Notes under the pieces: model-generated
Told to the model about the DNA's origin: nothing
Database searches by the model: none
Seen by the model: the letters and a program-made list of their open reading frames with translations, nothing else
Program-made: the position numbers and the translations under genes
Origin: Candidatus Krumholzibacteriia bacterium
Lineage (GTDB): Bacteria > Krumholzibacteriota > Krumholzibacteriia > LZORAL124-64-63
Direction of reading: 5' to 3'
Length of the DNA stretch: 64,000 bases
Assembly (NCBI GenBank): GCA_024763215.1
Contig: JANTFX010000001.1
Span: 27,816 to 91,815, forward strand
Part shown: positions 3-54,883 of the stretch, in pieces
How the letters are laid out: the number at the start of each line of letters is the position of its first letter
Numbering within the stretch: the stretch's first letter is position 1

Positions 3-1886
3 GACCTGGACTGCGATCAGGTCCTGTCCCTGGCCGTGCTGCCGGACGGGCGGCTGGTGGCCGGTTGCGAACCCGACGGGCAGGTGCTTCTGGTCTCCGC
101 CGCGGGGCAGGCCACCGTCCTGGGCAAGGTGCCCGAAAAATACGTCTGGGACATGACGGTGGGGCCGCAGGGGAAGGTCTACCTGGCCGTGGGCAGCCCC
201 GCGGCGTTGCTGGTGGCCGATCCCGACCAGGGCGGGCTGGACCAGGTGACGGACTTTCCGGCGGAGAACGCCCTTGCGGTGGCGTTTGGCGCCGACGGCA
301 AGCTCCTGGTCGCCACCCAGGGCCCGGGCCTGGTCTATCGTCTGGATCCGCAGGCTCCCAGGGCCAAGGAGGTCGTTCTGCAGACCGACCAGAACGAGGT
401 GAACGATCTGCTGGCCGGGCCGGACGGCCTGTGCGCCCTGGCCCTGGATGACGGCACCGGGGAAGGCCAGGATCAACAGCCGCCATCGGGTGACCAAGCC
501 AAGGCCGGCCCGCAGAGGCCGGTGGTGATGTTGCCGGGCGTCAGGACCTCCGGGGGCACCGATGTGCCCCACGCGGCCCTGTACCAGCTCGAGGGCATGC
601 CGGCCCCGACGTTGATCTGGTCCGGGGATCTGGACCTGATGTCGGCGCTTTACGTGCCGGATGTGGGCTGGATCGGCGGGGGCCTGCTGGACAAGGAGCA
701 TCCCCTGGCGGTCTTGAACAAGCTGACTCCGCCTGCGGGTGAGCAGACCCTCGCCAGCTGGCGGGGAGGGGACATCATGACCCTGTTGCCGGGCCGTGGG
801 CCCGGCCGGATCATGGTGGTCCAGACCCGGCCGAGCCGCATCGACGTCTTCGGCCCCGGCGGCAAGGGCCAGCGGCTGGTCACCGGCCCGGTCCTCGATG
901 CCGGCCGGGCGGTGGACTGGGGCCGCCTGTCCTGGACGGGTGCGGCGCCGGGGCAGGAACCCGCCTGGTCCGTACGCACCGGCAACCGCGAAACCGCGGA
1001 CGGGACCTGGAGCGAGTGGTCGCGGCCCATGCACGGACCGGATATGAAGCTGGATGTGCCGCCTTCCCGGTTCCTGCAGTGGCGGCTGTCCTTGCCCTCC
1101 TCGGCCGGTGAGGACTTCACGGTGGCGTCGGTGACCGTCAGCGCCTGGGGAAAGAACCGCCCGCCGGTGATCTCGGCCCTGAACCAGGAGAACCTCAAGA
1201 ACGTGCGCAAGGGCGGGCTGATGGAACCCCGGTCCCACCTGACCCGCACCTTCGGCAGCGGTCTGAAAGCGGAATTCAGCCGGCGGGCACCCGCGGCCAG
1301 GCCGGGTTATGACGAGCGGGTGAAACTGGGCCGATCCGTGAAGGTTTTCAGCTGGAAGGCGACCGACCCCGACGGGGACCGGTTGGATTACGAACTGGCC
1401 TGCCGCAGGGAGGGCCAGAGCGAATGGGTCGGCATCGCCTCGGGCCGGGACGGCGGGCTGGAGGCCTGGGACAGCTCCCAGGTGCCGGACGGTTCCTACC
1501 GCATCAGGCTGACCGTCCGCGACGATCCCGACAATCCCGGTGACCAGGCCCTTTCCGGAAGCCGCGTGCTGGGGCCGGTCGTGGTGGACAACACGCCGCC
1601 GCGCATCCGGGATCTGCAGGCCACCGCCCGGGGCCGCATCATCCATATCGAGTTCGAGGCCCGGGATGAGGGCAGCCCCCTGGCCGGCGCCTTCCTCGTC
1701 CTTGCGGATCAGAGCCGGGAGCGCCTGGACCCGCGGGACAGGATCTGCGACAGCGTCCGCGAGAGCTTCTCCTGCGACCACGCCCTGGCGGCCTCGGACA
1801 CCCTCGCCGGCTGGGTCCGCATCGAGGTGCTCGATGCGGCCGGCAACGTGGCCACGGGCAAGTGCCCGGTGGTGCCTAGGCGATGA
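3..1886 (+). CDS. Secreted or periplasmic beta-propeller repeat protein with a C-terminal Ig/FN3-like domain. It is 5'-partial: the reading frame is open to the window edge.
   Basis: The frame of ORF 36..1886 has no stop upstream to position 3. There are repeated blade-like segments (e.g. GKVYLAVGSP..., GKLLVATQGPGLVYRL). The C-terminal region (WKATDPDGD...YRIRLTVRDD) looks Ig-like. No catalytic motifs were recognised. Confidence 0.6.
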   Translation, partial: DLDCDQVLSLAVLPDGRLVAGCEPDGQVLLVSAAGQATVLGKVPEKYVWDMTVGPQGKVYLAVGSPAALLVADPDQGGLDQVTDFPAENALAVAFGADGKLLVATQGPGLVYRLDPQAPRAKEVVLQTDQNEVNDLLAGPDGLCALALDDGTGEGQDQQPPSGDQAKAGPQRPVVMLPGVRTSGGTDVPHAALYQLEGMPAPTLIWSGDLDLMSALYVPDVGWIGGGLLDKEHPLAVLNKLTPPAGEQTLASWRGGDIMTLLPGRGPGRIMVVQTRPSRIDVFGPGGKGQRLVTGPVLDAGRAVDWGRLSWTGAAPGQEPAWSVRTGNRETADGTWSEWSRPMHGPDMKLDVPPSRFLQWRLSLPSSAGEDFTVASVTVSAWGKNRPPVISALNQENLKNVRKGGLMEPRSHLTRTFGSGLKAEFSRRAPAARPGYDERVKLGRSVKVFSWKATDPDGDRLDYELACRREGQSEWVGIASGRDGGLEAWDSSQVPDGSYRIRLTVRDDPDNPGDQALSGSRVLGPVVVDNTPPRIRDLQATARGRIIHIEFEARDEGSPLAGAFLVLADQSRERLDPRDRICDSVRESFSCDHALAASDTLAGWVRIEVLDAAGNVATGKCPVVPRR

Positions 1887-2365
1887 ACGGGCCGGGCTTC
1901 GATTTCGCGGCGGACGAGCGCTGGATGCAGGTCGCCCTCGGCGAGGCCGCCCGGGCGGCCGACCAGGGCGAGGTTCCGGTGGGGGCGGTGGCGGTCGCCG
2001 GCGGCCGCATCATCGGACGCGGAGCCAACCAGGTCGAGAAACTGCAGGACCCGACCGCCCATGCGGAGATCCTGGCCCTGGGCGCCGCGGCCGGAACCCT
2101 GGGCAACTGGCGCCTGAACACGGTGACCCTGTACGTCACCCTCGAGCCGTGCACCATGTGCACCGGGGCCATCCTGCTGGGCAGGCTGGGGCGGCTGGTG
2201 TTCGGGGCGGCCGATCCCCGGGCCGGTATGGTGGTCTCCGGGGGGCGGCTGCTCGATGGCAATCCGTACCGGCACCAGGTGGCGGTCACGGGGGGGGTCC
2301 TGGCCTCGGCATGCGAGGTGCTGCTGCGGGATTTCTTCGCCGCCAGGCGGTCTGACGGCCCCTGA
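1883..2365 (+). CDS. tadA: tRNA-specific adenosine deaminase TadA
   Basis: 160 aa. HAE zinc motif (TAHAEILAL) and PCxxC (LEPCTMCTGA), the typical CDA fold signature. Its start overlaps the upstream stop (ATGA), so it is translationally coupled. Confidence 0.9.
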   Translation: MNGPGFDFAADERWMQVALGEAARAADQGEVPVGAVAVAGGRIIGRGANQVEKLQDPTAHAEILALGAAAGTLGNWRLNTVTLYVTLEPCTMCTGAILLGRLGRLVFGAADPRAGMVVSGGRLLDGNPYRHQVAVTGGVLASACEVLLRDFFAARRSDGP

Positions 2366-2385
2366 AACGGACGGATCCGGCCTTG

Positions 2386-2414
2386 TTGATTTTCCCCGGG
2401 GCCGGTGCTATATT
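2386..2414 (+). promoter_or_regulatory. Sigma-70-like promoter for the tRNA cluster: TTGATT, 17-nt spacer, TATATT.
   Basis: Spacing is near consensus and it lies 18 nt upstream of the first tRNA 5' end. This is sequence match only. Confidence 0.45.
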
Positions 2415-2431
2415 GCTCGCCCTGTTCAGGT

Positions 2432-2519
<88 letters not shown>

Positions 2520-2554
2520 GCGTCGATCAGGCGCACGGCGACGATCCGGATCGG

Positions 2555-2644
2555 GGAGAGGTGCCGGAGTGGTTGAACGGGGCGGTCTCGAAAACCGTTG
2601 AGCTCTTCGGAGTTCCCAGGGTTCGAATCCCTGCCTCTCCGCCA
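2555..2644 (+). tRNA. tRNA-Ser (anticodon CGA), class II
   Basis: Same acceptor as the first tRNA-Ser. D-loop GAGTGGTTGAA. Anticodon loop CTCGAAA. A long variable arm. GGTTCGAATCC T-arm. CCA encoded. Confidence 0.9.
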
Positions 2645-2723
2645 GATCCGAAATTTACCGGCGCAATCCCGCGGTCAGGCCCGGCCTGCACCGGCGGTCG
2701 GGATGCGCTCGGATGACAAGTTT

Positions 2724-2799
2724 GGGGATGTAGCTCAGCTGGGAGAGCGCCTCGTTCGCAACGAGGAGGTCGGCGGTTCGAGCCCGCTCATCTCCACCA
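2724..2799 (+). tRNA. tRNA-Ala (anticodon CGC)
   Basis: Acceptor GGGGATG/CATCTCC with the G3:U70 Ala identity pair. D-arm GCTCAGCTGGGAGAGC. Anticodon loop TTCGCAA. T-arm GGCGGTTCGAGCCCGCT. CCA encoded. Confidence 0.9.
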
Positions 2800-2835
2800 A
2801 CTTCACGGCCCGGCGGATCCGGGCCAGGGCATGAT

Positions 2836-2932
2836 GGGCCAGGCCCGGTGTGACGCCGGAGCACTAATTCCGTCAGGACTGGAAAGTAGCAGCGGTACGT
2901 TCCCTTCGGCGTGTGCGCCGCCAGCCTGGCCC
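2836..2932 (+). ncRNA. ffs: Probable signal recognition particle RNA (small bacterial 4.5S/ffs)
   Basis: A perfect 9-bp closing stem (GGGCCAGGC at 2836-2844 with GCCTGGCCC at 2924-2932). The conserved SRP domain IV motif CCGUCAGGACUGGAAAGUAGCAGCGG (UCAGG...GGAA tetraloop...AGCAGC) sits at the apex. The position immediately upstream of dnaX matches the common ffs-dnaX-ybaB-recR synteny. The internal helix was not fully folded by hand. Confidence 0.6.
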
Positions 2933-3083
2933 ACCTTCTTCATCAGCGAGTCCCCTGCCGCAGGATGTCATGGCCCCGGACCCCCTCCTCGTGTTAGAGT
3001 GGCGACCGGCCAGCCGCCGCCTCGGATCGTGATCGCCGGCCGGGGGCCGCGCCGAGGTATCATCCTCCAGCAAGTGGAGCGCC

Positions 3084-4844
3084 ATGTCCTACGAAGCCAT
3101 CGCCCGCAAGTACCGTCCCGAGACCTTCGCCGAGGTGGTGGGGCAATCCCATGTCACCGACACCCTGTGCGCGGCCGTGCGCAGGGACAAGCTCAGCCAC
3201 GCCTACCTGTTCAGCGGCCCCCGCGGTTGCGGCAAGACCACCGTGGCGCGGCTGCTGGCCAAGGCCATCAACTGCCCGTCGCCGGTCGACGGCGACCCCT
3301 GCGGCAAGTGCGAGAGCTGCCGGGCCATCGCCCGCGGCAGCTACCTGGACGTGCTGGAGATCGACGCGGCCAGCAACACCGGCGTGGACAACATCCGTGA
3401 GCTGCGGGACATGGCCCAGTACTCCCCCAGCGAGGGCAGCAACCGGGTGTTCATCATCGACGAGGTCCACATGCTGTCCAAGGGCGCGTTCAACGCCCTG
3501 CTGAAGATCCTCGAGGAACCGCCGGCCCGGGTCTTCTTCTTCTTCGCCACCACCGAGGTCCACAAGATCCCCCGCACCATCCTGTCGCGCTGCCAGAGGT
3601 TCGATTTCCGCCTGCTCAGCCAGGGCGAGCTGGAAGGCCGGCTGGCGGAGGTGGCCGCGGCGGAGGGGGCTCAGCTCGAGCCGGGCGCCCTGCGTCTGCT
3701 GGTCTCCCTGGCCGAAGGCAGCCTGCGGGACGGTCTGAGCCTGCTGGACCAGGTGCTGGCCTCCTGCGAAGGCGGCGTCACGGAACAGAATGTGGTCGAG
3801 ACCTTCGGGTTGATTCGCAGCGAGATCTACCTCGATTTGAACGATGCCATCGTGGACCACGACCCCGGCCGGGCTCTGGCGCTGGTGGACAGCCTGGCCC
3901 GGGCCGGGCAGAGCCTGGGCACCTTCGCCCGCGGCATCGTGACCGATTTCCGCAACCTCATGCTGCTGAAGATCGACCCGGAGCTGGGCCGCATGGTGGA
4001 TCTGCCGGCCGACCAGCTGGAGCGGCTGGCCAGGCAGGCCGCCCGCTTCAGCGAGCAGGACCTGCTGGCCCTGATCGAACGGGCCAGCGGCCATTTCGAA
4101 CGGATCCACCGCAGCACCCAGCCGCGCATCCTGCTGGAGGCGGCGGTGGTCGAGTACACGCGGTTCGAGTCCCGCATCCTGCTGGCGGATCTGGCCCGCC
4201 GCCTGGAGGCCTTGGCAGGGCCGGGACAGCCCGGCCCCACCGCAGGTGGGGGGCGGCCCGCCACCGCCGCCGGGACGCCGGACCGGGCCCCGAAGCCCGA
4301 TGCGGGGGGTCGCGACCGGCGGCGCGCCCAGGGGCACGGCGTGGTCCGCGAAGCCGGGGGTTCCGTGGCCGCGGCCGCGAAGTTAGCAGACGCTGCCGAG
4401 GCCGGCGACCTGACGGGCACCGACGCCGAGGTCCCCGGCTGGACGCGCCTGATCGAGGTCCTGATGCAGAAGGCGCCCCGCGTGGGGGCCTGCCTGATGA
4501 ACGGCCTGCCGTCGTTCGATCCGCAGCAGGGGAAACTCGTCATCGCTTTCGCCGCAGACAAGGAGTTCCAGGTCGGCAGCATCCAGGGGGATCGGGAGCG
4601 GATCGCCCAACTGGCCAGCCGGCTGTGGCAGAAGCCCGTCAAGGTGGAGCTCGTTCTGGGCCGTCAGGGGCAGCAGGAAACGGTGCGGGAGGACATCCGC
4701 AAGCAGGTGGCGCCGACCCGGAACGAGGAGCTCAAGCGCGCGTGCGCGGACGATCCGGCCCTGGACAGCCTCGTGGAGATGATGGACGCGGCGCCGCTGC
4801 CCCCGGGTGAACAGGAACAATGGGATGATCCCGCCGACGGCTGA
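3084..4844 (+). CDS. dnaX: DNA polymerase III subunit gamma/tau
   Basis: The N-terminus MSYEAIARKYRPETFAEVVGQSHV plus the Walker A GPRGCGKTT, the Zn module CGKCESC and the DEVHML box. It has a long Pro/Ala/Gly-rich tau linker. Confidence 0.95.
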   Translation: MSYEAIARKYRPETFAEVVGQSHVTDTLCAAVRRDKLSHAYLFSGPRGCGKTTVARLLAKAINCPSPVDGDPCGKCESCRAIARGSYLDVLEIDAASNTGVDNIRELRDMAQYSPSEGSNRVFIIDEVHMLSKGAFNALLKILEEPPARVFFFFATTEVHKIPRTILSRCQRFDFRLLSQGELEGRLAEVAAAEGAQLEPGALRLLVSLAEGSLRDGLSLLDQVLASCEGGVTEQNVVETFGLIRSEIYLDLNDAIVDHDPGRALALVDSLARAGQSLGTFARGIVTDFRNLMLLKIDPELGRMVDLPADQLERLARQAARFSEQDLLALIERASGHFERIHRSTQPRILLEAAVVEYTRFESRILLADLARRLEALAGPGQPGPTAGGGRPATAAGTPDRAPKPDAGGRDRRRAQGHGVVREAGGSVAAAAKLADAAEAGDLTGTDAEVPGWTRLIEVLMQKAPRVGACLMNGLPSFDPQQGKLVIAFAADKEFQVGSIQGDRERIAQLASRLWQKPVKVELVLGRQGQQETVREDIRKQVAPTRNEELKRACADDPALDSLVEMMDAAPLPPGEQEQWDDPADG

Positions 4845-5220: not shown

Positions 5221-5847
5221 ATGCCCCGCGGTGAGGCCGCCGGCGACGGCGGCGAGTTCCAGTCCCCGGCCCTGGAGAACCTGGTTCGCAACCTGGGGCG
5301 CCTGCCCGGGCTCGGGCGCAAGTCCGCCACCCGCATCGCCCTGCACCTGGTGGGGGGCGAGGCGGAAACCCGGGAACTGGTCGCGGCCGTCGAGACGGCC
5401 CTTGCGCAGGTGCGGCACTGCTCCCGTTGCGGGGCCATCACCGAGGACGATCCCTGCCGCATCTGCACCTCGCCCCGGCGCGATCCCACCCAGCTGTGCG
5501 TCGTCACCAGCCCCGTGGATATCCTGCCCTTCGAGAAGGGGGGCTTCTTCCAGGGGCACTACTTCGTCCTGGGCAGGCTGCTGTCGCCCCTGGACGGAAT
5601 CCGGGCCCGGGACCTGCCCTTCGATCGGCTGCAGAGGCGCCTGGCGACGGACGGGGTCAAGGAAGTGATCATCGCCCTGGACGCCAGCGTGGAGGGGGAA
5701 ACCACGGCGCTGTACATCCAGCGGCTGTGCGAGGACCGCGATCTGAAGCTCAGCCGCCTGGCCACGGGCATCCCCGTGGGGGGGGCCCTGGCCTACACCG
5801 ACGAGGTCACTCTGCAGCGTGCCTTCCAGTTCAGGCGCAGTTTCTGA
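5221..5847 (+). CDS. recR: Recombination protein RecR
   Basis: A helix-hairpin-helix N-terminus (LPGLGRKSATRIALHL), a C4 zinc finger (CSRCGAITEDDPCRIC) and a Toprim C-terminus. Confidence 0.93.
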   Translation: MPRGEAAGDGGEFQSPALENLVRNLGRLPGLGRKSATRIALHLVGGEAETRELVAAVETALAQVRHCSRCGAITEDDPCRICTSPRRDPTQLCVVTSPVDILPFEKGGFFQGHYFVLGRLLSPLDGIRARDLPFDRLQRRLATDGVKEVIIALDASVEGETTALYIQRLCEDRDLKLSRLATGIPVGGALAYTDEVTLQRAFQFRRSF

Positions 5848-5990
5848 GGGTCCGGCGGCCGGGGGCCGCCGCCGCTCGGGGACGGCATCCGAAATTTCCG
5901 GTTAATTCCCCTTGTTTCCTGCCGATACCCCTGCTGATGCTGGAATTCGAAGCCACCAGGGCGCCGAAGGCGCTACGGGAGAGATGATTC

Positions 5991-6488
5991 ATGGTCAGAG
6001 CAGAGTGGGCCATCTTCGAAGAAGATTTCTGGGCCATCAACAACGTGCTGGACGACCTGCTCAAGAGCAGCAAGGCCGGCAACGTGATGCTGGTCGATCC
6101 GACCGGTCAGCTGGTGAGCCATTGCGGCCGGGACGTGGACTTCGATTTGACCAGCTTCGCCTCGCTGTGCGCCGCCGACTTCGCAGCCAACTACCAGCTG
6201 GCCAAGCTGATCGGCGAGAGCGATTTCAGCACCCTGTACCACCAGGGGGCCAAGGACAGCATGTTCCTGGGCAAGATCGCCAAGGGCGTGGTGCTGGTCG
6301 TGCTGTTCGACAAGAGCACGACACTGGGCCTGGTGCGCCTGCGGGTCAGGCGGGCGGTGGCCGAGCTCGACAAGATCATCGAGACCCTCTACGACAAGCT
6401 GGAGTTCCGCCACGAGGAATACGACGCCCTGGACGATACCTTCACCCGCGAGGTGGAGGCGGAGATAGACAACCTGTTCGCTGATTGA
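5991..6488 (+). CDS. mglB: Roadblock/LC7-domain GTPase-activating protein MglB
   Basis: 165 aa. Alignable over its whole length to Myxococcus MglB, including the C-terminal ...IDNLF tail. There is a GGGAGAG RBS. It sits immediately upstream of mglA. Confidence 0.85.
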   Translation: MVRAEWAIFEEDFWAINNVLDDLLKSSKAGNVMLVDPTGQLVSHCGRDVDFDLTSFASLCAADFAANYQLAKLIGESDFSTLYHQGAKDSMFLGKIAKGVVLVVLFDKSTTLGLVRLRVRRAVAELDKIIETLYDKLEFRHEEYDALDDTFTREVEAEIDNLFAD

Positions 6489-6536
6489 TGCGGGGGCGAC
6501 AGCTCCCGGTTCCGGCAATCCAGAAGGGGAAACGCC

Positions 6537-7121
6537 GTGTCGCTGATCAACTACTCATCGCGTGAGATCAACTGCAAGGTCGTGTACTACGGTCCCGGCC
6601 TGGGCGGCAAGACGACCAACATCCAGTACGTGTACGAGAAGCTCTCGCCCGAGACCAAGGGCAAGCTGGTGACCCTCGCCACGGAAATGGACCGGACCCT
6701 GTTCTTCGATTTCCTGCCCCTGGAACTGGGCGAGGTCAAGGGCTTCAAGACCCGTTTCCACCTCTACACCGTGCCGGGTCAGGTGTATTACAACGCCAGC
6801 CGGAAGCTGATCCTCAGGGGCGTGGACGGCATCGTGTTCGTGGCCGACAGCAGCGAAGCCCGCTTCGACGCCAACATCGAAGCGCTCTACAACCTGCACG
6901 ACAACCTGAAGGAATACGATCTGAGCCTGGACCAGATCCCCTTCGTCCTGCAGTGGAACAAGCGCGACATGCCCGACGCCATCCCCGTGGCCGAGCTCAA
7001 CGAGGAGCTCAACCCCGAAGGCTACGAGAACTTCGAGGGCATCGCCGTCAAGGGCGTGGGGGTTTTCGACACCCTCAAGTGCGTGGCCAAGTTGATCCTG
7101 CGCCAGCTGCAGACGACCTGA
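6537..7121 (+). CDS. mglA: Ras-like small GTPase MglA (GTG start)
   Basis: 194 aa. Near-identical signature blocks to Myxococcus MglA: the P-loop YYGPGLGGKTT, switch I DRTLFFDF, switch II TVPGQ and the NKRD box. Confidence 0.9.
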   Translation: MSLINYSSREINCKVVYYGPGLGGKTTNIQYVYEKLSPETKGKLVTLATEMDRTLFFDFLPLELGEVKGFKTRFHLYTVPGQVYYNASRKLILRGVDGIVFVADSSEARFDANIEALYNLHDNLKEYDLSLDQIPFVLQWNKRDMPDAIPVAELNEELNPEGYENFEGIAVKGVGVFDTLKCVAKLILRQLQTT

Positions 7122-7170
7122 CCGATCACATTTTTTCGGGCCACGGCCCGCCCCGCTTGTTATGATTCAG

Positions 7171-7206
7171 CCCCCCGGCGGTGATGCCGGGGGGCGGTCT
7201 CTTTTC
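7171..7206 (+). terminator. Rho-independent terminator after mglA
   Basis: A 9-bp GC stem CCCCCCGGC/GCCGGGGGG with a 6-nt loop, followed by CGGTCTCTTTTCC. Confidence 0.6.
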
Positions 7207-7231
7207 CCCCTCGTGACCCGAAAGGAACATC

Positions 7232-7717
7232 ATGCCGCGTCCTGTGCTCTACATGCTGGGCACCTTCTTCGGTACCGGCTTCGCGCCCTTCGCGCCCGCC
7301 ACCGTCGCCAGCTTCGCCTTCATGGTGCTGTGGTGGTTGATCTGGTCCCTGGCCGGACCCATCCCTATGGTTGTGACCCTGGCTGCGCTGGTGGTGGTGA
7401 CCCTGGTGGGCATCCCGGTGGCCGGCAGCCTGGAAAAGATCCACGGCGAGGATCCGTCCCTGGTGGTCATCGACGAGATCGCCGGCATGCTGGTGTCGTT
7501 CCTGGGCGTGACGCTGAGCCCCTGGGGTTTCGTGATCGCCTTCTTCTGGTTCCGGTTCTTCGACATCCTCAAGCCCCTGGGGGTGCGGAAGCTGGAGCAC
7601 CTCGGCGGCGGCGGCGGACTCGGTATCATGGCCGATGATATCGGGGCCGGCGTGCAGGCCCTGGTGCTGACGCATCTTACCATCCGCTTCCTGAGTCTGA
7701 CGGGGGTCCTGGGCTGA
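7232..7717 (+). CDS. pgpA: Phosphatidylglycerophosphatase A
   Basis: 161 aa membrane protein with the PgpA N-terminus LGTFFGTGFAPFAPATVAS. RBS AAAGGA. Confidence 0.85.
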   Translation: MPRPVLYMLGTFFGTGFAPFAPATVASFAFMVLWWLIWSLAGPIPMVVTLAALVVVTLVGIPVAGSLEKIHGEDPSLVVIDEIAGMLVSFLGVTLSPWGFVIAFFWFRFFDILKPLGVRKLEHLGGGGGLGIMADDIGAGVQALVLTHLTIRFLSLTGVLG

Positions 7718-9006
7718 TGGGGATGGCGGCACCGGTCAAGATCATCGCCGTGGGTGACGAATTGCTCGAAGGGCGCACCCTCGACAGCAACAGCAGGGAC
7801 ATCCAGCGGGCCCTGGGGGGGCACGCCGTGCAGGTCGAACTTGTGCAGATGGTCCCCGACCGTCAGGATGCCATCGTCCAGGCCCTGGACCGGACCACGG
7901 AGGGCGATCTGGTCTTCATGTGCGGCGGCCTCGGTTCCACCCCCGATGATCTGACCCGGGAGGCGGTCGCGGTCTGGGGCGGGGTCGATCTGCCCGAGGA
8001 CGAGCGGGCCATGGAGATGATCCGGGCCCGCTACCGCCGCCGCGGCCGGGCCATGCACCCGGTGGTGGCACGCCAGGCCAGGGTGCCGGCGGGCCTGCGG
8101 CCGGTGGCCAATCCGGTGGGGTCGGCCCCAGGCCTGGTGGGCCGGCTGCGCGGCCGGCACCTGATCCTGTTGCCGGGCTTCCCCGCGGAATTGAACGGGC
8201 TGCTGCCGCTGATGGTAGCCGAACTGCGCGGCAGCGGTTTGTTGCCGGCTGAGGGGCGGGTCCTGACCTACCGCCTGGCGCAGATCACCGAGCTGGCGCT
8301 GGTGGATCTGTGCCGGCCGGTCATGGACTCCCACCCGGGCCTGAAGTGGTCCTGGTGGGTGACAGACTGGGGTGTGGATCTGCGGGTTGCCGCGCCCGGC
8401 GGGTGCGCCGACGATGCGATGCCCCAGGAGATGGCCGACGCCCTTGAGGCCGCCCTGGGGCACCACGTCTTCAGCCGACGGGACCAGGACCTGGCCGCGG
8501 TGGTGCAAAAGATGATGCTGGCGCGGGCGGCCACCTGCGGCGTCGCCGAATCCTGCACCGGAGGTCTGATCGGCGGAGCGTTGACCGCCAACCCCGGCTC
8601 GTCCGGTTTCTTCAGGGGCGGGTTCCTGGTCTATGCCGACGATGCCAAGTCCAAGCTGCTGGAAGTGGGGGAAGCCGACCTGGCTGGCCACGGCGCCGTC
8701 AGCGAGCCCGTCGCGCGCGCCATGGCCGCCGGCTGCCGCCGGAAGCTGGGCTGCGACTACGCCCTGGCCGTCAGCGGCATATCCGGCCCTGGCGGAGGCA
8801 CCGAAGGCAAGCCTGTGGGGACGACCTGGGTGGCCGTCGCCACCCCGAGTGCGCTCTTCGCCCACTGTTACCGGTTCCCCGCCGACCGGCGCCGCAACCG
8901 CCTGCTGACCGTGGCCGCGGCCCTGGATAGCTTGCGCCGCGTGCTCCAGTTTGGTGATGACGCCGATCCCTGGAGCTTGACCGCGGCCTGGGATTTCCGG
9001 GCATGA
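7717..9006 (+). CDS. cinA: CinA family protein (competence/damage-inducible; nicotinamide-nucleotide amidohydrolase PncC domain)
   Basis: An N-terminal MoCF-binding domain (IIAVGDELLEGRTLDSN...GGLGSTPDD) and a C-terminal CinA/PncC domain (CGVAESCTGGLIGGALT). The start overlaps the pgpA stop. Confidence 0.9.
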   Translation: MGMAAPVKIIAVGDELLEGRTLDSNSRDIQRALGGHAVQVELVQMVPDRQDAIVQALDRTTEGDLVFMCGGLGSTPDDLTREAVAVWGGVDLPEDERAMEMIRARYRRRGRAMHPVVARQARVPAGLRPVANPVGSAPGLVGRLRGRHLILLPGFPAELNGLLPLMVAELRGSGLLPAEGRVLTYRLAQITELALVDLCRPVMDSHPGLKWSWWVTDWGVDLRVAAPGGCADDAMPQEMADALEAALGHHVFSRRDQDLAAVVQKMMLARAATCGVAESCTGGLIGGALTANPGSSGFFRGGFLVYADDAKSKLLEVGEADLAGHGAVSEPVARAMAAGCRRKLGCDYALAVSGISGPGGGTEGKPVGTTWVAVATPSALFAHCYRFPADRRRNRLLTVAAALDSLRRVLQFGDDADPWSLTAAWDFRA

Positions 9007-9696: not shown

Positions 9697-10806
<1,110 letters not shown>

Positions 10807-10826
10807 CAACCAAGGTAGGGACCAGG

Positions 10827-11555
10827 GTGAAACCTCGCCGTCCTGCGCGCGGTCAGCCGCGCCCTCGGCAGCACACCATAGGTAACCAGCAGCCGGGCAA
10901 CCCCGCGGGGGAGGCCCGGCTGCTCGGCGTTGACCGTGTGGGCCGGACGGTGGTGGTGGTGCTGGCCGACGGCCGGAGCTTCGAGCTCGACCAGCAGAGC
11001 TTGCCCGACCGGTTGCCGCCGGTCGGCCAGGTGGTGCCCGCGGAGGTCGTGGCCCAGCTCGAGGCCGCCCGGCAGCGGAAGCTGGCCGCCAGGGATCTGA
11101 TGACCATGCTGGGCAGAAGCCTGCAACCGGTGGCGCGGTTGAGGCGGAAGCTCCTGGACAAGGGCCATGCACCCGAGGCGGTGGAGCAGGTCCTGGACAT
11201 GATGCAATCCCGGGGGCTGTGTTCGGACCGCGCCTACGCGGAGGCCTATTGCCGGGACACGTTGCGGGCCAAGGCGGTGGGGTCGGGATATCTGGTGGCG
11301 CGCTTGCGGTCCCGTCAGGTACCATCGGCTGTGGCCAGGGAGGCGGTGGCCGCCACTCTGGACCCTGAACAGGAACAGGAGCTGGCCCTGCAGGCCGCCA
11401 CCGTCAGGTGGCGCCGCCTGGGGGGGGAGGCCGATGTGGCCGCCCTGGCCAAGGTCGTCAGGTATCTGCTGGGCAGGGGGTTTTCACCCGCCGTGGCCAA
11501 TGCCGCGGCCCGCCGGGCCCGGCCGGATTCCCCGGGAGGAACGGACGCGACATGA
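10827..11555 (+). CDS. recX: RecA regulator RecX
   Basis: Immediately downstream of recA. Alpha-helical repeat protein, about 240 aa, with typical RecX C-terminal repeats (LLGRGFSPAVANAA). Confidence 0.75.
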   Translation: MKPRRPARGQPRPRQHTIGNQQPGNPAGEARLLGVDRVGRTVVVVLADGRSFELDQQSLPDRLPPVGQVVPAEVVAQLEAARQRKLAARDLMTMLGRSLQPVARLRRKLLDKGHAPEAVEQVLDMMQSRGLCSDRAYAEAYCRDTLRAKAVGSGYLVARLRSRQVPSAVAREAVAATLDPEQEQELALQAATVRWRRLGGEADVAALAKVVRYLLGRGFSPAVANAAARRARPDSPGGTDAT

Positions 11556-12418
11556 GGATCCTCGTCACAGGTTGTGAAGGGATGCTCGGGCGGGCGGTCA
11601 CCAGCTGTCTGTCCCCGGCCCACCAGGTACGTGGAGTCGACCTGAAGGACGGCGACCTGGCCGACAGGAAGGTCGCCACCCGGATCCTGGAGGGTGTGCG
11701 GCCGGACTGGGTCGTCAACTGCGCGGCCTGGACCGACGTGGACGGCGCGGAGGAACACCGCGAGCAGGCCCTGGCCGCGAACGCGGACCTCCCGGCCAAC
11801 CTGTCGCGCCTTTGCGACCGCCTGGGTTGCGGTTTGACCCACCTGAGCACCGACTACGTTTTTTCAGGAGTGGGCAGAGGGTTTGCCGAGGACAGCCCCC
11901 GCGCGCCTGTGAATCATTACGGGTTGACCAAGGCCAGAGGCGAGGAAGCCGTAGAACGGATGACCTCCCCGTGGCAGATCGTCAGGACGAGCTGGCTGTT
12001 CGGGGACGGGCCCCGTAATTTCGTGCGGACCATCGCGGGATTGCTTTCCCGGCGCAGGATGATCAGGGTGGTCGATGATCAGCGGGGCAACCCCACCTAC
12101 ACCGAGGACCTGGCGGCGGTGATCGAGTTCCTTGTCACGGGGGGCCACCGTGGTATCTTTCACGCCACCAACAGCGGTGTGTGCACCTGGTGGGAATTCG
12201 CACGGGCCATCGCGGCCGAAGCCGGCTGCGATCCGGAGCGGGTCCAGCCTTGCCCCAGCAGCGAATACCCGCGGCCCGCGCCGCGGCCTGCGTGCTCCAT
12301 CCTGGAAAGCGGCCGACTGGAAGCTGTCGGGTGCCCGGCGCGCCCGCCCTGGCGGGACGCCCTGTCCCGGTACTACCGCTTGTTGGTGTCCGATGAGGCC
12401 CGTTATCGGTTGGATTGA
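11552..12418 (+). CDS. rmlD: dTDP-4-dehydrorhamnose reductase
   Basis: Start reassigned to ATG 11552 (RBS GGGAGGA; overlaps the recX stop). N-terminal Rossmann fold MRILVTGCEGMLG. The RmlD core NCAAWTDVD...YVFSG...YGLTKARGE. Confidence 0.85.
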   Translation: MRILVTGCEGMLGRAVTSCLSPAHQVRGVDLKDGDLADRKVATRILEGVRPDWVVNCAAWTDVDGAEEHREQALAANADLPANLSRLCDRLGCGLTHLSTDYVFSGVGRGFAEDSPRAPVNHYGLTKARGEEAVERMTSPWQIVRTSWLFGDGPRNFVRTIAGLLSRRRMIRVVDDQRGNPTYTEDLAAVIEFLVTGGHRGIFHATNSGVCTWWEFARAIAAEAGCDPERVQPCPSSEYPRPAPRPACSILESGRLEAVGCPARPPWRDALSRYYRLLVSDEARYRLD

Positions 12419-31216: not shown

Positions 31217-31501
31217 TCAGAAGGCCACATAACCGCGGGCCACGGCGAGGTCTTCCTTCTTGCGCTCCAGCTCGATTTCCCATTCGGTGGAGCCTTCCTC
31301 GAGGTTGGGTTTGGTCCTGAGCAGGAAAGCGGTGGCTTCCTCGTCGATCTCGTCCTCGACCTTGAGGTCCCTGAGGATCAGGTTCTCGACCAGATGCCGG
31401 AAATCGGTCTCGGCGATCTCCAGGTCGATGATCTCCTCGTCCAGCAGGCGGTCACAGATCCGGCGGGCCAGCACCGCGACGCGTTCTTCGGTCAGTCGCA
31501 C
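31217..31501 (-). CDS. DUF507 family protein (paralog 1)
   Basis: 94 aa, acidic and helical. Shares the pattern I..L..K....L.........A.DE..DL...EDEID.EA with its neighbour. Confidence 0.6.
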   Translation of the reverse strand: MRLTEERVAVLARRICDRLLDEEIIDLEIAETDFRHLVENLILRDLKVEDEIDEEATAFLLRTKPNLEEGSTEWEIELERKKEDLAVARGYVAF

Positions 31502-31514
31502 CAGATTCCTCCGT

Positions 31515-31796
31515 CTACAGGGTGAAGTTCCGCTTGCGGGCGATCTCGCGCTTCATCTTGTTGCGCAGGGCGCCCACATCCATGTCCATGGCCCGGATCT
31601 CCTCGACGTTCTGGCTGATGAGGGCTTCCACCTCGGCGTCGATCTCGTCCTCGGCCTTCATGTTCTCCATCATGGCGTCGTCCGCGGCCCGCACCAGCAG
31701 ATCCTCGTTGGCCAGGATGTGGATATGGGGGTGGGCCTGGATCATCTTGAGGATCTTGTCCGAAAGGTATTCGATCTTGTGTTTGCTGAGCCTCAA
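31515..31796 (-). CDS. DUF507 family protein (paralog 2)
   Basis: 93 aa. Tandem paralog of the DUF507 gene at 31217..31501, with the same acidic EDEIDxExE core. Confidence 0.6.
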   Translation of the reverse strand: MRLSKHKIEYLSDKILKMIQAHPHIHILANEDLLVRAADDAMMENMKAEDEIDAEVEALISQNVEEIRAMDMDVGALRNKMKREIARKRNFTL

Positions 31797-32069: not shown

Positions 32070-33055
<986 letters not shown>

Positions 33056-33056
<1 letters not shown>

Positions 33057-33976
33057 TGCGGCCGGTGCGCAGGCAGAAGACGGACCGCATCCCGCCGGAA
33101 ATCCTCGCCGCCGTGCGCAGGATAGAGATCCGGACGCGGCGTTTGGTGGAGGAGGTCTTCTCGGGAGAGTACCAGTCGGTGTTCAAGGGCACGGGCATGG
33201 AATTCCGCGAGGTGCGGGAGTACGTGCCCGGGGATGACATCAGAACCATCGACTGGAACGTGACCGCGCGTACCGGCCAGCCGTTCGTCAAGATCTACGA
33301 GGAGGAGCGCGAACTGACGGTGATCCTGGCGGTGGACATGAGCCGCAGCGGATGGTTCGGCTCCGGCGGGGTCTTCAAGGTCGAGGTGGCCGCCGAGCTT
33401 TGCGGTGTGCTGGCGTTCGCGGCCATCGCCAACAAGGACAAGGTGGGGCTGATCCTGTTCAGCGACGAGGTCGAGAAGTTCATCCCGCCGGCCAAGGGCA
33501 AGAGCCATGTGCTGCGCCTGATACGCGAATTGCTGACCTTCCGGCCCGCCGGTACCGGGACCGATCTCAACGCCCCCTTGCAGCTGCTGGGGTCGGTCTT
33601 CAAGCGCCGGGCCACGGTGTTCCTGGTCTCGGATTTCTGGGCCCGGGATTTCGATGTGAGCCTGTCGGTCATGGCGCGCCGGCACGACATGGTGGCGGTC
33701 CGGATCCGGGACCCCCGGGAGACGAGCCTGCCTGAGGTGGGGCTGGTGGAGTGGCGGGACGCCGAGACGGGGGACCGGATGGTGGTCGACACCGCCGATC
33801 CGCGGCTGGTCGCCGAGCTGGCGAGCCGGGCCGCGGTCCGGGACCGCGATCTTGAGCATCTGCTGGCCTCGCGGGGGGTGGACCTTGTGGATGTCGAGGC
33901 CGGAAGCGGTTACGTGGAGCCGTTGCGGCAGTTCTTCCTGCGCCGTGAGGGGCGGCGGTTGAGGGGGCGGGCTTGA
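33056..33976 (+). CDS. DUF58 domain protein (MoxR partner with a vWA-like fold)
   Basis: Start overlaps the moxR stop. The typical DUF58 block EFREVREYVPGDDIRTIDWNVTAR. Confidence 0.85.
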
Positions 33977-35094
33977 ACAGGCGGAGCATCAGGTACCGGA
34001 TCCTGTGGGTGGGCCTGTGGCTGCCGGCCCTCTGTGCCGCTGCGTACGCCGGGAATCAGCCGGTGGGATCTGCGACCGCGCCTGCGCCCACTGATACGGC
34101 CGTGGCGACCCTGGCCTGGCCGGCTGGGGGCCCTGGTCCGGAACGCCTGCTGGTCTGGCCCGATTCCCTGTTGCTGGGCCAGGTGCTGACGGTGGGGGTG
34201 GACATCGCCGGTCCGGTTCCGGGGAAGCTCGACTCCCTGCTCCAGGCGGATAGGCCGTGGCTGGCGCCCGACCGCAATGGTGGCGCCGTGGAGGGGGCGC
34301 AGGTGGCAAAGCCGGGTTCGGTTGCCGGCCTGCCGGACAGCTGGCCATCGGTGCCGGAGGGCAAGACGCGCCTGATCCGCAGGTTCCGCGTCTACGGCCT
34401 GGACCCGTTCCGGGTCGCCCTGGGAGACCGCTCCTCGCCGGTGGTCCGGGTCGGCCGCCGCCTGGCCGGAGGCGGGAACCTGGCGCCGGTCCGCGATCCC
34501 CGGCCCCTGGGCTGGAGCCCGGCCCGGTGGTTGCTGTGGACCGTGGGCGCCGTCCTGCTTGCGCTGTGCTCATGGTGGTGGTGGCGGCGCCGGAAAAGGG
34601 CCGGACGCCCCCTGCCCCGGGCGGCCTTGCCGTTGCCGGGGTGGCTGGAGGCGGCCTGCGGGCTGGAGGACCTGCTGGCCGAGGGTTGGCTGGAGCGGGG
34701 CGAGCATCACCGTTTCCTGGACGGTCTGGCGGGGCTGATCCGCGGTTACCTTTCGGGACGCTACCTGATCGGCGCCCGCCAGATGACCGCCCCGGAGATC
34801 TTGGCCGCCTGCCGGGACAGAGGCTATGACACCGGGCCGGTTCGCCAGCTGGTGGCGGTGATGACCGAGGCGGACCGGTCCCGTTACCAGCCCCGCGCGC
34901 TCAGGGGGGAGGATTGCCGCCGCTGGGCCGCGGCCTTTTTCCGGATCATGGCCGCCTGCCGCATCATGCCGGTCTTCACGCCGGTTCCGGCGGAGCTTTC
35001 CTTGCGGGCGGGCAAGGCCTGGTCGCACCTGGATCGGGAACTCGCCTCCGAGGCTGTTGAGCCCGAGGCCCTGCGGACCGGGGAGGTCGGCTGA
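33973..35094 (+). CDS. Hypothetical single-pass membrane protein of the Bat operon (possibly DUF4381-like)
   Basis: Signal peptide, then a TM segment followed by a basic cluster (WLLWTVGAVLLALCSWWWWRRRKR), then a cytoplasmic domain. Translationally coupled to both neighbours. Confidence 0.5.
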   Translation: MNRRSIRYRILWVGLWLPALCAAAYAGNQPVGSATAPAPTDTAVATLAWPAGGPGPERLLVWPDSLLLGQVLTVGVDIAGPVPGKLDSLLQADRPWLAPDRNGGAVEGAQVAKPGSVAGLPDSWPSVPEGKTRLIRRFRVYGLDPFRVALGDRSSPVVRVGRRLAGGGNLAPVRDPRPLGWSPARWLLWTVGAVLLALCSWWWWRRRKRAGRPLPRAALPLPGWLEAACGLEDLLAEGWLERGEHHRFLDGLAGLIRGYLSGRYLIGARQMTAPEILAACRDRGYDTGPVRQLVAVMTEADRSRYQPRALRGEDCRRWAAAFFRIMAACRIMPVFTPVPAELSLRAGKAWSHLDRELASEAVEPEALRTGEVG

Positions 35095-36080
35095 TGGAAC
35101 TGGCCCGCCCCTGGCTGTTGTCGTTGATCGTGCCGGTGGTGCTGGTGGTCTGGCATCGGTTGCGGTCCAGGGGGATGGCCCCGGTGGTCCGGCACGCCGA
35201 CCTGTCGCTGCTGGCCGGGACCAGACCGTCGCTGAGGGTGCGGGTGCACCGTCTTTTGCCGCTGCTTTCGGGGCTGGCCATGATCCTGCTGGTGCTCGGG
35301 GCGTCCGGGCCGCGCATCGCCCACCACAGCGAGACGGTCAAGGGCCGCGGCATCGACATCGTGCTGGCGCTGGATATCAGCGGCAGCATGCGTTCCCTGG
35401 ATTTCCAGCCCAAGGACCGCCTCGAGTCGGCCAAGGACGTGATCAGGGGGTTCATCGCCGGCCGGCCCCACGATCGCATCGGCCTGGTCCTGTTCGCGGC
35501 CAAGGCCTTCACCCAGTGCCCCCTGACCCTGGACCACCCCGTGCTGACCGGTTTTCTGGACGAGGTCCAGGTGGGTCTGATCGACGACGGGACGGCCATC
35601 GGGCTGGGCCTGGCCACCGCGGTCTCGCGCCTGAAGCATTCGGACTCTCCCAGCAAGACGGTGATCCTGCTCACCGACGGGGCCAACAACATCCCCACCC
35701 TGGAGCCGGAGACCGCCGCGGACCTGGCCAAATCCCTGGGGGTGCGGGTCTATACGGTGGCCATCGGCAAGGAGGGGCTGGTCCCCTATCCGGTGGACGA
35801 TCCCTTCTTCGGCCGCCGCACGCGCCAGGTGGAATCCCACCTGGATCTGGATCTGCTGCGCCGGATCGCCGCCAAGACCGACGGCCGGATGTTCCAGGCC
35901 ACCAGCGCGGACATGTTGAAGCAGATCTTCGGGACCATCGACAAGCTGGAGACGGCGCGGTACGAGACGGTGGTCAGCACCTGGTACCGGGAGCTGGTGG
36001 GCTGGTGTCTGATCCCGGCTGTGCTGATGGTGCTGCTGGAGGTCCTGTTGCAGGTGACGTGGGTAAGGAGATTGCCTTGA
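35094..36080 (+). CDS. batA: BatA-like vWA-domain membrane protein
   Basis: An N-terminal TM, the vWA MIDAS motif DISGSM and a C-terminal TM. Confidence 0.85.
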   Translation: MELARPWLLSLIVPVVLVVWHRLRSRGMAPVVRHADLSLLAGTRPSLRVRVHRLLPLLSGLAMILLVLGASGPRIAHHSETVKGRGIDIVLALDISGSMRSLDFQPKDRLESAKDVIRGFIAGRPHDRIGLVLFAAKAFTQCPLTLDHPVLTGFLDEVQVGLIDDGTAIGLGLATAVSRLKHSDSPSKTVILLTDGANNIPTLEPETAADLAKSLGVRVYTVAIGKEGLVPYPVDDPFFGRRTRQVESHLDLDLLRRIAAKTDGRMFQATSADMLKQIFGTIDKLETARYETVVSTWYRELVGWCLIPAVLMVLLEVLLQVTWVRRLP

Positions 36081-36096
36081 GCGGAGGCTGCCGACC

Positions 36097-53353: not shown

Positions 53354-53521
53354 GCGTGGTCCTCTCTGGAGGCGGAGCTGCGGATGACGGTCGATCCCGA
53401 TATCATGTTCCGGATGACAACATGCGGGGTGTCGTCCACAATGTGGCCGTGACGCCACGAGGTGGCAAGTATGCAGGCGGGCCTCCGGCACCGGTGGCCA
53501 TCAAATCCTGGGGAGCGAACG

Positions 53522-54883
53522 GTGAAGAAGATCCTGGTCGTCGATGACGAAGCCGCCATCCGGGAGACCCTGGAACAGATCCTGGGCTACGAGGGCTACC
53601 ATGTGCAGAAGGCCGGATCCGGACCCGAGGCCTTGCAGCTGATGTCCTCAGGGCTGCCGGATGTGGTCCTGCTGGACGTCAAGATGCCGGGGATGGACGG
53701 CTTCGAGGTCCAGCAGCAGGTGGCGGCTCGGGGCTGGGATGTCCCGATCATCGTGATCTCCGGGCACGGCAACATCGAAACCGCCGTGGAGGCGGTGCGC
53801 AAGGGCGCCTATGATTTCCTGGAAAAACCCCTGGACCGCTCCCGGTTGCTGCTGACCATCGCCAACTGCCTGGGGCACCACAAGGTGGTCAGGGACAACC
53901 GCGTTCTCCAGCAGCAGCTGCTCGAGGGGCCTCCCCTGGTGGGCGACAGCCCGGCCATGCTGCAGGTCAAGGACTTCATCACCAAGGTCGCCGCCAGCGA
54001 CGCCACGGTCCTGATCACCGGGGAGAACGGCACGGGCAAGGAGCTGGTGGTCAAGGCGATCCACCGCGCCAGCTCCCGGGCCGACAGGCCCCTGGTGGAA
54101 GTCAATTGCGCGGCCATCCCCCGCGACCTGGTCGAGAGCGAATTGTTCGGTCACGAGAAGGGCAGTTTCACCGGGGCCGACCGCCCGCGGACCGGGAAGT
54201 TCGAGCAGGCCGACGGGGGCACCCTGTTCCTGGACGAGATCGGGGATATGAACGAGCAGGCCCAGGCCAAGGTTCTCAAGGCCGTGGAGGAGAGCCGCTT
54301 CCAGAGGGTGGGTGGGGACGAGACCAGGGAGGTGGACGTCCGGATCATCGCGGCCACCAACAGGGACCTGACGGCCCCGGATTCCGGCTTCCGGCAGGAC
54401 TTGTTTTTCCGCTTGAACGTGCTGGCGATCCACTTGCCGCCCCTGCGGGAAAGGGGGGATGATGTCGAGCTGCTGCTGAACTGGTTCATGGCCGACCTGG
54501 GACGCAGGCTCAAGCGCAAACCCCTGCGGTTCCACCCCGACGCGCTGGCGATCCTGAAGGCCTACTCCTGGCCGGGGAATGTGCGAGAATTGCGTAACCT
54601 CGTGGAAAGACTGTTGATTATGGCTGCCGGGGAGACCGTCAAGCCCGTGGATCTGCCGCCCATGAATGTGGTGGCTCAGGAGGCGGGCATGGAGGAGGGG
54701 CTGCTGGCGTGCGGCGATTTCCAGGAGTTCAAATCGCGCAGCGAGGCGATATTTCTGCAACACAAGTTGCGGGAGAACCTCTATAATGTTTCCAGAACGG
54801 CTGAGGCGCTGGGCATGCAGCGAAGCAACCTCTACAAGAAGATCGCCAAGTACGGTTTGCAGACCCAGCCCGATTTCGGGTAG
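53522..54883 (+). CDS. Sigma-54-dependent response regulator (NtrC family: REC + AAA+ + Fis-type HTH), GTG start
   Basis: The receiver domain has the phospho-acceptor context (VVLLDVKMPGMDG). The AAA+ domain has Walker A GENGTGKE and the GAFTGA variant GSFTGA. C-terminal HTH. No histidine kinase gene is adjacent. Confidence 0.88.
   Translation: MKKILVVDDEAAIRETLEQILGYEGYHVQKAGSGPEALQLMSSGLPDVVLLDVKMPGMDGFEVQQQVAARGWDVPIIVISGHGNIETAVEAVRKGAYDFLEKPLDRSRLLLTIANCLGHHKVVRDNRVLQQQLLEGPPLVGDSPAMLQVKDFITKVAASDATVLITGENGTGKELVVKAIHRASSRADRPLVEVNCAAIPRDLVESELFGHEKGSFTGADRPRTGKFEQADGGTLFLDEIGDMNEQAQAKVLKAVEESRFQRVGGDETREVDVRIIAATNRDLTAPDSGFRQDLFFRLNVLAIHLPPLRERGDDVELLLNWFMADLGRRLKRKPLRFHPDALAILKAYSWPGNVRELRNLVERLLIMAAGETVKPVDLPPMNVVAQEAGMEEGLLACGDFQEFKSRSEAIFLQHKLRENLYNVSRTAEALGMQRSNLYKKIAKYGLQTQPDFG

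Follow-up and report, generated by a model that had tools for sequence, protein, structure and literature searches.

A canonical Group 1 MglA/MglB pair at a lineage-wide chromosomal position in Candidatus Krumholzibacteriia, preceded by a putative sigma-28-type promoter

A polarity GTPase pair, mglB and mglA, was found in a 64-kb stretch of DNA (GC content, 66.8%) from a Candidatus Krumholzibacteriia bacterium (contig JANTFX010000001.1, positions 27,816 to 91,815). This whole stretch is called the window here, and positions are those of the window unless a locus name is given. On its sequence features, the pair (mglBA) is classed as canonical, a Myxococcus-type MglA of Group 1 together with its coupled MglB. 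Vertical inheritance has kept it in one place, between recR and pgpA, across Krumholzibacteriota/Latescibacterota from a time that predates a phylum-scale split. In the clade of the window, it is preceded by a conserved element that resembles promoters of sigma-28 (FliA). We put the probability of this explanation as a whole, a canonical switch that is vertically inherited and, in the window's clade, transcribed as a sigma-28-type operon, at roughly three in four.

The mglB gene (positions 5991 to 6488, forward strand; ATG start) encodes a 165-amino-acid protein of the Roadblock/LC7 GTPase-activating protein (GAP) type with an acidic C-terminal helix, EAEIDNLFAD. After a gap of 48 nucleotides (nt), mglA follows on the same strand (positions 6537 to 7121; GTG start; Shine-Dalgarno sequence AAGGGG at 6524 to 6529) and encodes a 194-amino-acid Group 1 Ras-like GTPase. 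The GC content at third codon positions is 0.89 for mglB and 0.92 for mglA, similar to the value of about 0.9 in neighboring genes and typical of real genes. The conserved upstream neighbor is recR (positions 5221 to 5847) and the usual downstream neighbor is pgpA (positions 7232 to 7717), both on the forward strand and both context outside the module; dnaX, ybaB, cinA, thpR, and recA were also confirmed in the window.

The best match of the window MglA among solved structures is the MglA of Myxococcus xanthus (E value, 2e-84), followed by that of Thermus thermophilus (E value, 9e-78). Residues 1 to 192 are colinear with M. xanthus MglA without a gap, and 126 of these 192 residues (66%) are identical. 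The P-loop GPGLGGKTT at residues 19 to 27 (G19, G21, K25, T26, and T27), the D52-R53-T54 stretch in which the arginine finger stands beside the G2 threonine, and the G3 motif T78-V79-P80-G81-Q82 are the same as in M. xanthus. The G4 motif N141-K142-R-D144 (NKxD) is present as in M. xanthus, and the α5 lysines K181 and K185 and residue L64 are also shared, with I67 replaced by V. Across 81 MglA sequences of the lineage, GKT, DRTLFFDFLPLELG, TRFHLYTVPGQ, and NKRD are invariant. The protein matched the Pfam families Arf and Gtr1_RagA; no NCBIfam model matched it. Group 1 MglA proteins are defined by an arginine next to the G2 threonine, a TVPGQ G3 motif, and coupling to MglB (Wuichet and Sogaard-Andersen 2014), and the window MglA has all of these features. 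Group 1 is widespread, and the same authors had already catalogued members in Fibrobacteres, Gemmatimonadetes, and other phyla, including neighbors of this one among the FCB phyla.

The Roadblock/LC7 domain of MglB (PF03259) was detected with an E value of 1.4e-8 and a bit score of 34.7, against a cutoff of 23. Among solved structures, M. xanthus MglB matches best (E value, 4e-34); the two proteins are 44% identical over their full length, and the alignment has a single gap, of 5 residues, in the linker. The two pairs (M. xanthus structures PDB 6IZW, 6H5B, 6HJH, and 5YMX) share the gene order mglB-mglA, the Roadblock fold, and an acidic MglB helix that ends in IDNLF, with the tail reading EVEAEIDNLFAD here and DDDIDNLFSE in M. 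xanthus; EID.LF is invariant in 76 sequences of the lineage. The flanking genes differ, being recR and pgpA here and masABK in M. xanthus. T. thermophilus MglA/MglB (PDB 3T12 and 3T1Q) likewise combines a Group 1 GTPase carrying an intrinsic arginine finger with a Roadblock GAP dimer, but its MglB is far more distant (E value, about 1e-11 to 4e-12). The NCBIfam equivalog model NF052242 matched the window MglB over its full length (residues 1 to 163 of the protein and 1 to 160 of 161 profile positions) with 85.7 bits, short of its cutoff of 200. The model's name points to a Thermus-type seed, and the shortfall speaks to subfamily distance rather than to the fold.

At the MglB interface, A64 is kept, whereas N37, R98, and G68 of M. 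xanthus are here T, G with an adjacent K, and Q, respectively, and these states are fixed across the lineage. A loss-of-function mutant of M. xanthus MglB at A64 and G68 has reportedly been described. The interface changes need not mean a loss of function, because an N37A/R98A double mutant of M. xanthus MglB lowers GAP activity in vitro only slightly. The acidic C-terminal helix of MglB has been found to covary with basic α5 residues of MglA (Baranwal et al.). The earlier note on this DNA had described a pair at this position that is near-colinear with the M. xanthus proteins and has an intact P-loop, intact equivalents of Arg53 and Gln82, and a conserved IDNLF tail, and the alignments bear out this description.

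By analogy with M. xanthus and T. thermophilus, MglA would alternate between an "on" form with bound GTP and an "off" form with bound GDP, and the "on" form would mark one pole and recruit or activate a motility machine. The MglB Roadblock dimer would speed GTP hydrolysis by positioning the arginine finger (R53) and the catalytic glutamine (Q82) of MglA itself. The acidic C-terminal helix of MglB would dock on the K181/K185 pocket of MglA and modulate nucleotide exchange. The machine so polarized may be a flagellum, type IV pili, or both. In contrast to M. xanthus, where MglA works with RomR/RomX, MglC, and Frz as partners, none of these was found within the 64-kb window. Pfam scans of about 55 open reading frames (ORFs), essentially all plausible ones in the window, revealed no pilus, gliding, Frz, RomR, MglC, or flagellar gene, in agreement with what had been noted before.

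A scan of one genome per species for MglA relatives returned 563 stretches, of which the best 80 (96 to 75% identity) were analyzed as loci L001 to L080. All are metagenome-assembled genomes (MAGs) of uncultured bacteria, mostly labeled Candidatus Krumholzibacteriia/-ota or Latescibacterota and in some cases "bacterium" or Fibrobacteraceae. When nine window proteins were mapped onto them by tblastn, the order dnaX-ybaB-recR-mglB-mglA-pgpA-cinA-thpR-recA was kept in 80/80 loci within the reach of each contig. The same order was found in two further contigs, L081 and L082, one of them labeled Gemmatimonadales. P0111, which bears that label, has exactly the same synteny with 89% identity; we rejected it as evidence of this synteny outside the lineage, given that the identical order and this identity are to the lineage of the window. 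The labels "uncultured Fibrobacteraceae" and "Gemmatimonadales" (L002, L004, L018, L021, L031, L038, L040, L041, and L043; L081) look unreliable, because gene order and MglA identities of 82 to 96% group these loci with those of Krumholzibacteriia.

The loci fall into a close clade (L001 to L043), whose MglA is 81 to 96% identical to that of the window, and a deep clade (L044 to L080), whose MglA is 75 to 80% identical. Median identities to the window in the close and the deep clade are 90% and 78% for MglA, 85% and 65% for RecA, and 64% and 37% for DnaX; that of RecR in the deep clade is 41%. MglA is thus the most conserved of the nine proteins of the block in both clades, ahead of RecA, and is under stronger purifying selection than RecA. 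Such conservation across a phylum-scale divergence implies that the role of MglA is central and involves many binding partners.

The earlier note had placed the module within the dnaX-ybaB-recR and pgpA-cinA-recA region. The location stands, but because the synteny is ubiquitous in the lineage, the housekeeping-gene setting is an inherited chromosomal position and no anomaly. The note had itself allowed that the pair might be ubiquitous in the lineage and merely syntenic; this is the case, which makes the pair an ordinary finding. NCBI records of close relatives already carry the name "gliding-motility protein MglA," and mglBA is an ordinary, already annotated, lineage-wide member of a known family. 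What is new here, the rank of MglA as the most conserved protein of the block and a conserved sigma-28-type promoter element, provides modest leads.

The promoter-like element emerged from an alignment of the recR-mglB spacers of the window and 42 close-clade loci. Apart from two blocks, TCAAG and G[CTA]CGATA, whose distance from each other is fixed, almost none of the spacer can be aligned. In the window, the first is a -35-like element, TTAAT, at positions 5902 to 5906 (clade consensus, TCAAG), in which T.AAG is invariant or near-invariant among 40 distinct sequences with unalignable flanks. The second is a -10-like element, GCCGATAC, at positions 5921 to 5928, which begins exactly 15 nt after TTAA; in sigma-28 promoters, the corresponding consensus is TAAA-N15-GCCGATAA. 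The whole element, TTAAT-N14-GCCGATAC, thus occupies positions 5902 to 5928 on the forward strand, co-oriented with mglB, and starts 89 nt and ends 63 nt before the mglB ATG.

The pattern T[CTA]AA-N15-GNCGATA matched the window (positions 5902 to 5927) and 39/40 other close-clade loci that contain the region, at 86 to 98 nt upstream of the mglB ATG. The exception is L023, which reads CGACA. The spacer length is always exactly 15 nt among the close-clade sites, and information content is restricted to T.AAG and G.CGATA. Over both strands of 1.15 Mb, comprising the window and the loci, the pattern yielded 41 matches; 39 are the orthologous mglB site, and the window has a single match. Of the non-orthologous matches, that at L030:12936 falls within an ORF of 757 amino acids and the other is at L067:4820. 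Markov simulations of the window produced 0 matches to the pattern. A sigma-70 scan of positions 5400 to 7800 found no promoter. The element is not a housekeeping promoter, because a window with ribosomal-protein, tRNA, prs, and recA genes contains it just once.

Both boxes resemble those of FliA-dependent class 3 promoters. The sigma-28 consensus is TAAAGTTT-N11-GCCGATAA, and the fliC promoter of Pseudomonas aeruginosa has TCTAAAG at -36 to -30 and GCCGATAA at -15 to -8. Among Escherichia coli FliA promoters validated by chromatin immunoprecipitation (ChIP) sequencing, flgKL reads TCAAGTCCGGCGGGTCGCTGCCGATAAT, modA reads TCAACTTCCTGCTTTTCCTGCCGATATT, fliL reads TCAAG...GCCGATAAG, ycgR reads TTAAG...GACCGATAAA, and fliC reads ...GACGATAAC. 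The variants TCAAG, TTAAG, and TCAAC are common to the close-clade sites and to E. coli flgKL, fliL, ycgR, and modA. The class 3 promoters of E. coli (flgKL, ycgR, modA, and fliC) and P. aeruginosa (fliC) share with the close clade the form T(A/C/T)AA(G)-N15-G(C/A/T)CGATA(A), which in the window reads TTAATTCCCCTTGTTTCCTGCCGATACC. The close-clade sites differ in that the last -10 position is often C and not A, that what lies downstream is a polarity GTPase pair and not flagellar or chemotaxis genes, and that recognition by FliA is predicted.

A position weight matrix (PWM) for FliA was built from 25 E. coli sites that scored high in ChIP; it is the matrix of E. coli and is independent of this lineage. 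The window site ranks first among 127,946 window positions, narrowly (13.7 bits versus 13.0 bits for the next best). In 37/40 close-clade sequences, no position on either strand of the whole locus scores higher than the orthologous site. Scores of the close-clade sites range from 12 to 21.7 bits, compared with 6.5 to 25.2 (median, 19.7) for the E. coli sites.

Transcription would begin near position 5936, a start site placed there because of the register of the P. aeruginosa fliC promoter, in which GCCGATAA lies at -15 to -8. The predicted 5' untranslated region (UTR) of mglBA is about 55 nt long (positions 5936 to 5990, forward strand) and contains a GC hairpin (5960 to 5974) and a Shine-Dalgarno sequence, GGGAG (5977 to 5981). 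A small GC hairpin just upstream of the mglB Shine-Dalgarno sequence recurs in most close relatives with differing stem sequences, and folding of the individual sequences is weak compared with shuffled ones (mean z, -0.7). RNAalifold predicted no structure from a MAFFT alignment of the 5' UTR, and an Rfam search of positions 5830 to 7240 matched no family. Downstream of mglA, an intrinsic-terminator-like hairpin with a T-rich tail (GCCCCCCGGC-GGTG-ATGCCGGGGGGC region; positions 7170 to 7205, forward strand) closes the mglBA unit. Its stem (7170 to 7195) comprises 11 pairs, of which 10 are G-C, and the sequence after it is TCTCTTTT. This is the strong terminator that had been noticed before, and a similar hairpin with a T tail and other stem sequences follows mglA in about 28/40 close-clade loci. 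In the window's clade, mglBA is probably an insulated two-gene unit with its own predicted sigma-28-type promoter and terminator. The predicted insulation of the pair from its neighbors in the close clade by these two elements is a point that the earlier note missed.

In the window's clade, mglBA would be an autonomous bicistronic operon that runs from the promoter at 5902 to 5928 to the terminator at 7170 to 7205. On balance, the motif inclines us to the view that this operon is transcribed by a sigma-28-family holoenzyme. Sigma-28 transcription of mglBA would therefore entail co-expression with late motility genes (flagellin, stator, and chemotaxis).

Several observations weigh against this explanation. 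At 13.7 bits, the site of the window itself matches less well than the sites of its relatives. Sigma-28 control is not tied to the module itself: neither the pattern nor the PWM revealed the motif upstream of mglB in the deep clade, where the recR-mglB gap measures 26 to 80 nt. The high PWM matches in that clade were rejected as counterparts, as they sit inside the coding sequence of ybaB or dnaX and are unconserved. On the side of the proteins, the three interface positions of MglB (N37, R98, and G68) depart from M. xanthus, and MglB's function as a GAP is predicted from homology. Moreover, sigma-28-family factors can drive nonflagellar programs, as exemplified by WhiG, and the sigma-28 assignment was made against promoters of two other bacteria, E. 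coli and P. aeruginosa.

The last two points also favor the strongest rival, according to which the element serves another alternative sigma factor (for example, one of the extracytoplasmic function [ECF] type, AAG-N16-CGA) or a nonflagellar sigma-28 paralog. Expression of mglBA would then be unconnected with the flagellar or chemotaxis regulon, and the target of the module would be type IV pili or surface motility, as in Myxococcus, Thermus, and Bdellovibrio. All characterized Group 1 MglA proteins act on type IV pili or gliding and not on flagella, and single-cell genomes of Latescibacteria encode type IV pili besides flagella. A literature search found no paper in the library covered that links a polarity MglA to FliA. 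Against this rival, both boxes and their exact spacing fit the sigma-28 consensus, and variants of validated E. coli FliA promoters are reproduced. Within the phylum, the Krumholzibacteriota MAG bin 3.1 has fliA (1 copy) and a full flagellar set, with 4 copies of fliC, 38 flagellar-assembly KEGG orthologs (KOs), and 23 chemotaxis KOs. In addition, the -10 (CGTC/CGTA) and -35 (GAAC) boxes typical of ECF promoters do not fit the element. We regard control by another sigma factor, with an output in pili or surface motility, as possible but doubtful.

A more specific form of the sigma-28 hypothesis is that mglBA is a class 3 operon of the flagellar/chemotaxis regulon in flagellated Krumholzibacteriia, in which it would select or switch the active flagellar pole or coordinate flagella with type IV pili. 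We advance this proposal tentatively. M. xanthus is not known to have flagella, and the putative sigma-28-type promoter has no counterpart there. Another parallel is the MglA of Bdellovibrio bacteriovorus, which is also a Group 1 protein in a flagellated, nonmyxobacterial host and acts at one pole; it differs in having RomR as a reported partner for its work on type IV pili and in prey invasion. The Bdellovibrio protein is not known to have a cognate MglB, whereas here MglB is present and conserved. The same literature search found no paper that combines Latescibacter* with MglA. Papers that mention MglA, MglB, and FliA together concern enteric bacteria, as far as their titles and abstracts indicate, and probably refer to the same-named galactose transporter genes mglBAC; we set them aside. 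The sigma-28-type promoter provides a concrete hypothesis on the role of MglA outside gliding bacteria and leads one to expect that mglBA is expressed together with late flagellar and chemotaxis genes. If this is true, the MglA polarity paradigm would extend from pili and gliding to flagellated cells, and such a flagellar output and its regulatory wiring would be previously undescribed for any MglA.

A third possibility is a functional link to the dnaX-ybaB-recR and cinA-recA genes, with MglAB acting in chromosome, replication, or cell cycle polarity or in DNA repair and being co-expressed with recR. The nine-gene order is kept across two deep clades despite divergence of DnaX and RecR to about 37 to 41% identity, and recR and mglB are almost never split, with an insertion in 1/76 loci only. 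In the deep clade, the short recR-mglB gap and the absence of a separate promoter motif make co-transcription plausible, and mglBA may be expressed there by read-through from recR. In the window's clade, however, mglBA has its own predicted promoter and terminator. The arrays tadA-tRNA-ffs-dnaX-ybaB-recR and pgpA/cinA-recA-recX are widespread housekeeping arrays in bacteria without MglA, and mglBA merely lies at the junction of the two. No MglA with a DNA-related role is known, and unrelated inserts break the mglA-pgpA junction in about 17 loci. We consider such a functional link improbable.

That junction (positions 7122 to 7231 in the window) is a hot spot of insertion, with inserts of 0.7 to 8.7 kb in L001, L003, L006, L011, L013, L016, L026, L031, L034, L041, L045 to L050, L052, and L053. 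By comparison, every locus that has both mglB and mglA has them side by side, 14 to 106 nt apart. The cargo at the mglA-pgpA junction differs from locus to locus and includes multiheme cytochromes, Cache/dCache sensors, a pyridoxal phosphate-dependent decarboxylase, asparagine synthase, DUF748, a beta-eliminating lyase, ATP-binding cassette permeases, glycosyltransferases, and a hybrid histidine kinase. Guilt by association through this cargo in the roughly 17 relatives was tried and abandoned, as there is no recurrent partner and no motility theme. An ORF of about 475 amino acids lies directly downstream of mglA only in L006 (1248 to 2672), L016 (10666 to 12105), and L011 (about 10417 to 12057). 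Its product is rich in proline and alanine, has a conserved N terminus (WVIDDG..PELTSLGDPL) and no Pfam match, and looks from its long hydrophobic stretches like a multipass membrane protein. The sole insert between recR and mglB (L036:1219-2596) contains two tandem ORFs of 223 amino acids without a Pfam match, and the sigma-28-like motif is kept downstream of it, beside mglB.

The paralog SofG of M. xanthus is likewise a Group 1 GTPase with an arginine finger. It carries terminal extensions, MglB does not stimulate it, and no GAP is known for it, whereas the window protein is MglA-sized and MglB-coupled. The reading of the window GTPase as an MglB-insensitive paralog, SofG-like or degenerate, in a pair that would not be a working GTPase/GAP couple, could appeal to the score of MglB below the equivalog cutoff and to the substituted N37, R98, and G68, but it can be dismissed with near certainty: the model was built on a Thermus-type protein, the N37A/R98A phenotype is slight, A64 and the C-terminal helix are invariant in the lineage, and MglA has the length of its M. 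xanthus homologue, aligns with it over residues 1 to 192 without extensions, retains R53, T54, TVPGQ, K181, and K185, and has mglB next to its gene, as the earlier assignment to MglA rather than to its paralogs had supposed.

Upstream of the module, the window holds a canonical array that spans positions 1883 to 4844. It begins with tadA (1883 to 2365), followed by tRNA-Ser(GGA) (2432 to 2519), tRNA-Ser(CGA) (2555 to 2644), tRNA-Ala(CGC) (2724 to 2799), and the small signal recognition particle RNA (2837 to 2934), with dnaX next. By Pfam, the window contains replication and repair genes, ribosomal protein genes, sugar-nucleotide and glycosyltransferase genes, and other housekeeping genes. Three genes for signaling proteins are unlinked to mglBA: they encode a 710-amino-acid HDOD protein (41047 to 43179), an NtrC-type response regulator with REC, sigma-54 activator, and HTH_8 domains (53462 to 54883), and a 1,042-amino-acid TPR sigma-54 activator (55354 to 58482). 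A Bat/aerotolerance-like cluster at about 32100 to 40673 comprises a MoxR AAA_3 ATPase, a DUF58 protein, an ORF without a Pfam match (33973 to 35094), and VWA, VWA-TPR, and BatD-TPR proteins. The 598-amino-acid ORF called at position 31260 probably starts much later, because its AAA_3 domain does not begin until residue 319 and positions 31217 to 31796 of the opposite strand are occupied by two DUF507 half-ORFs.

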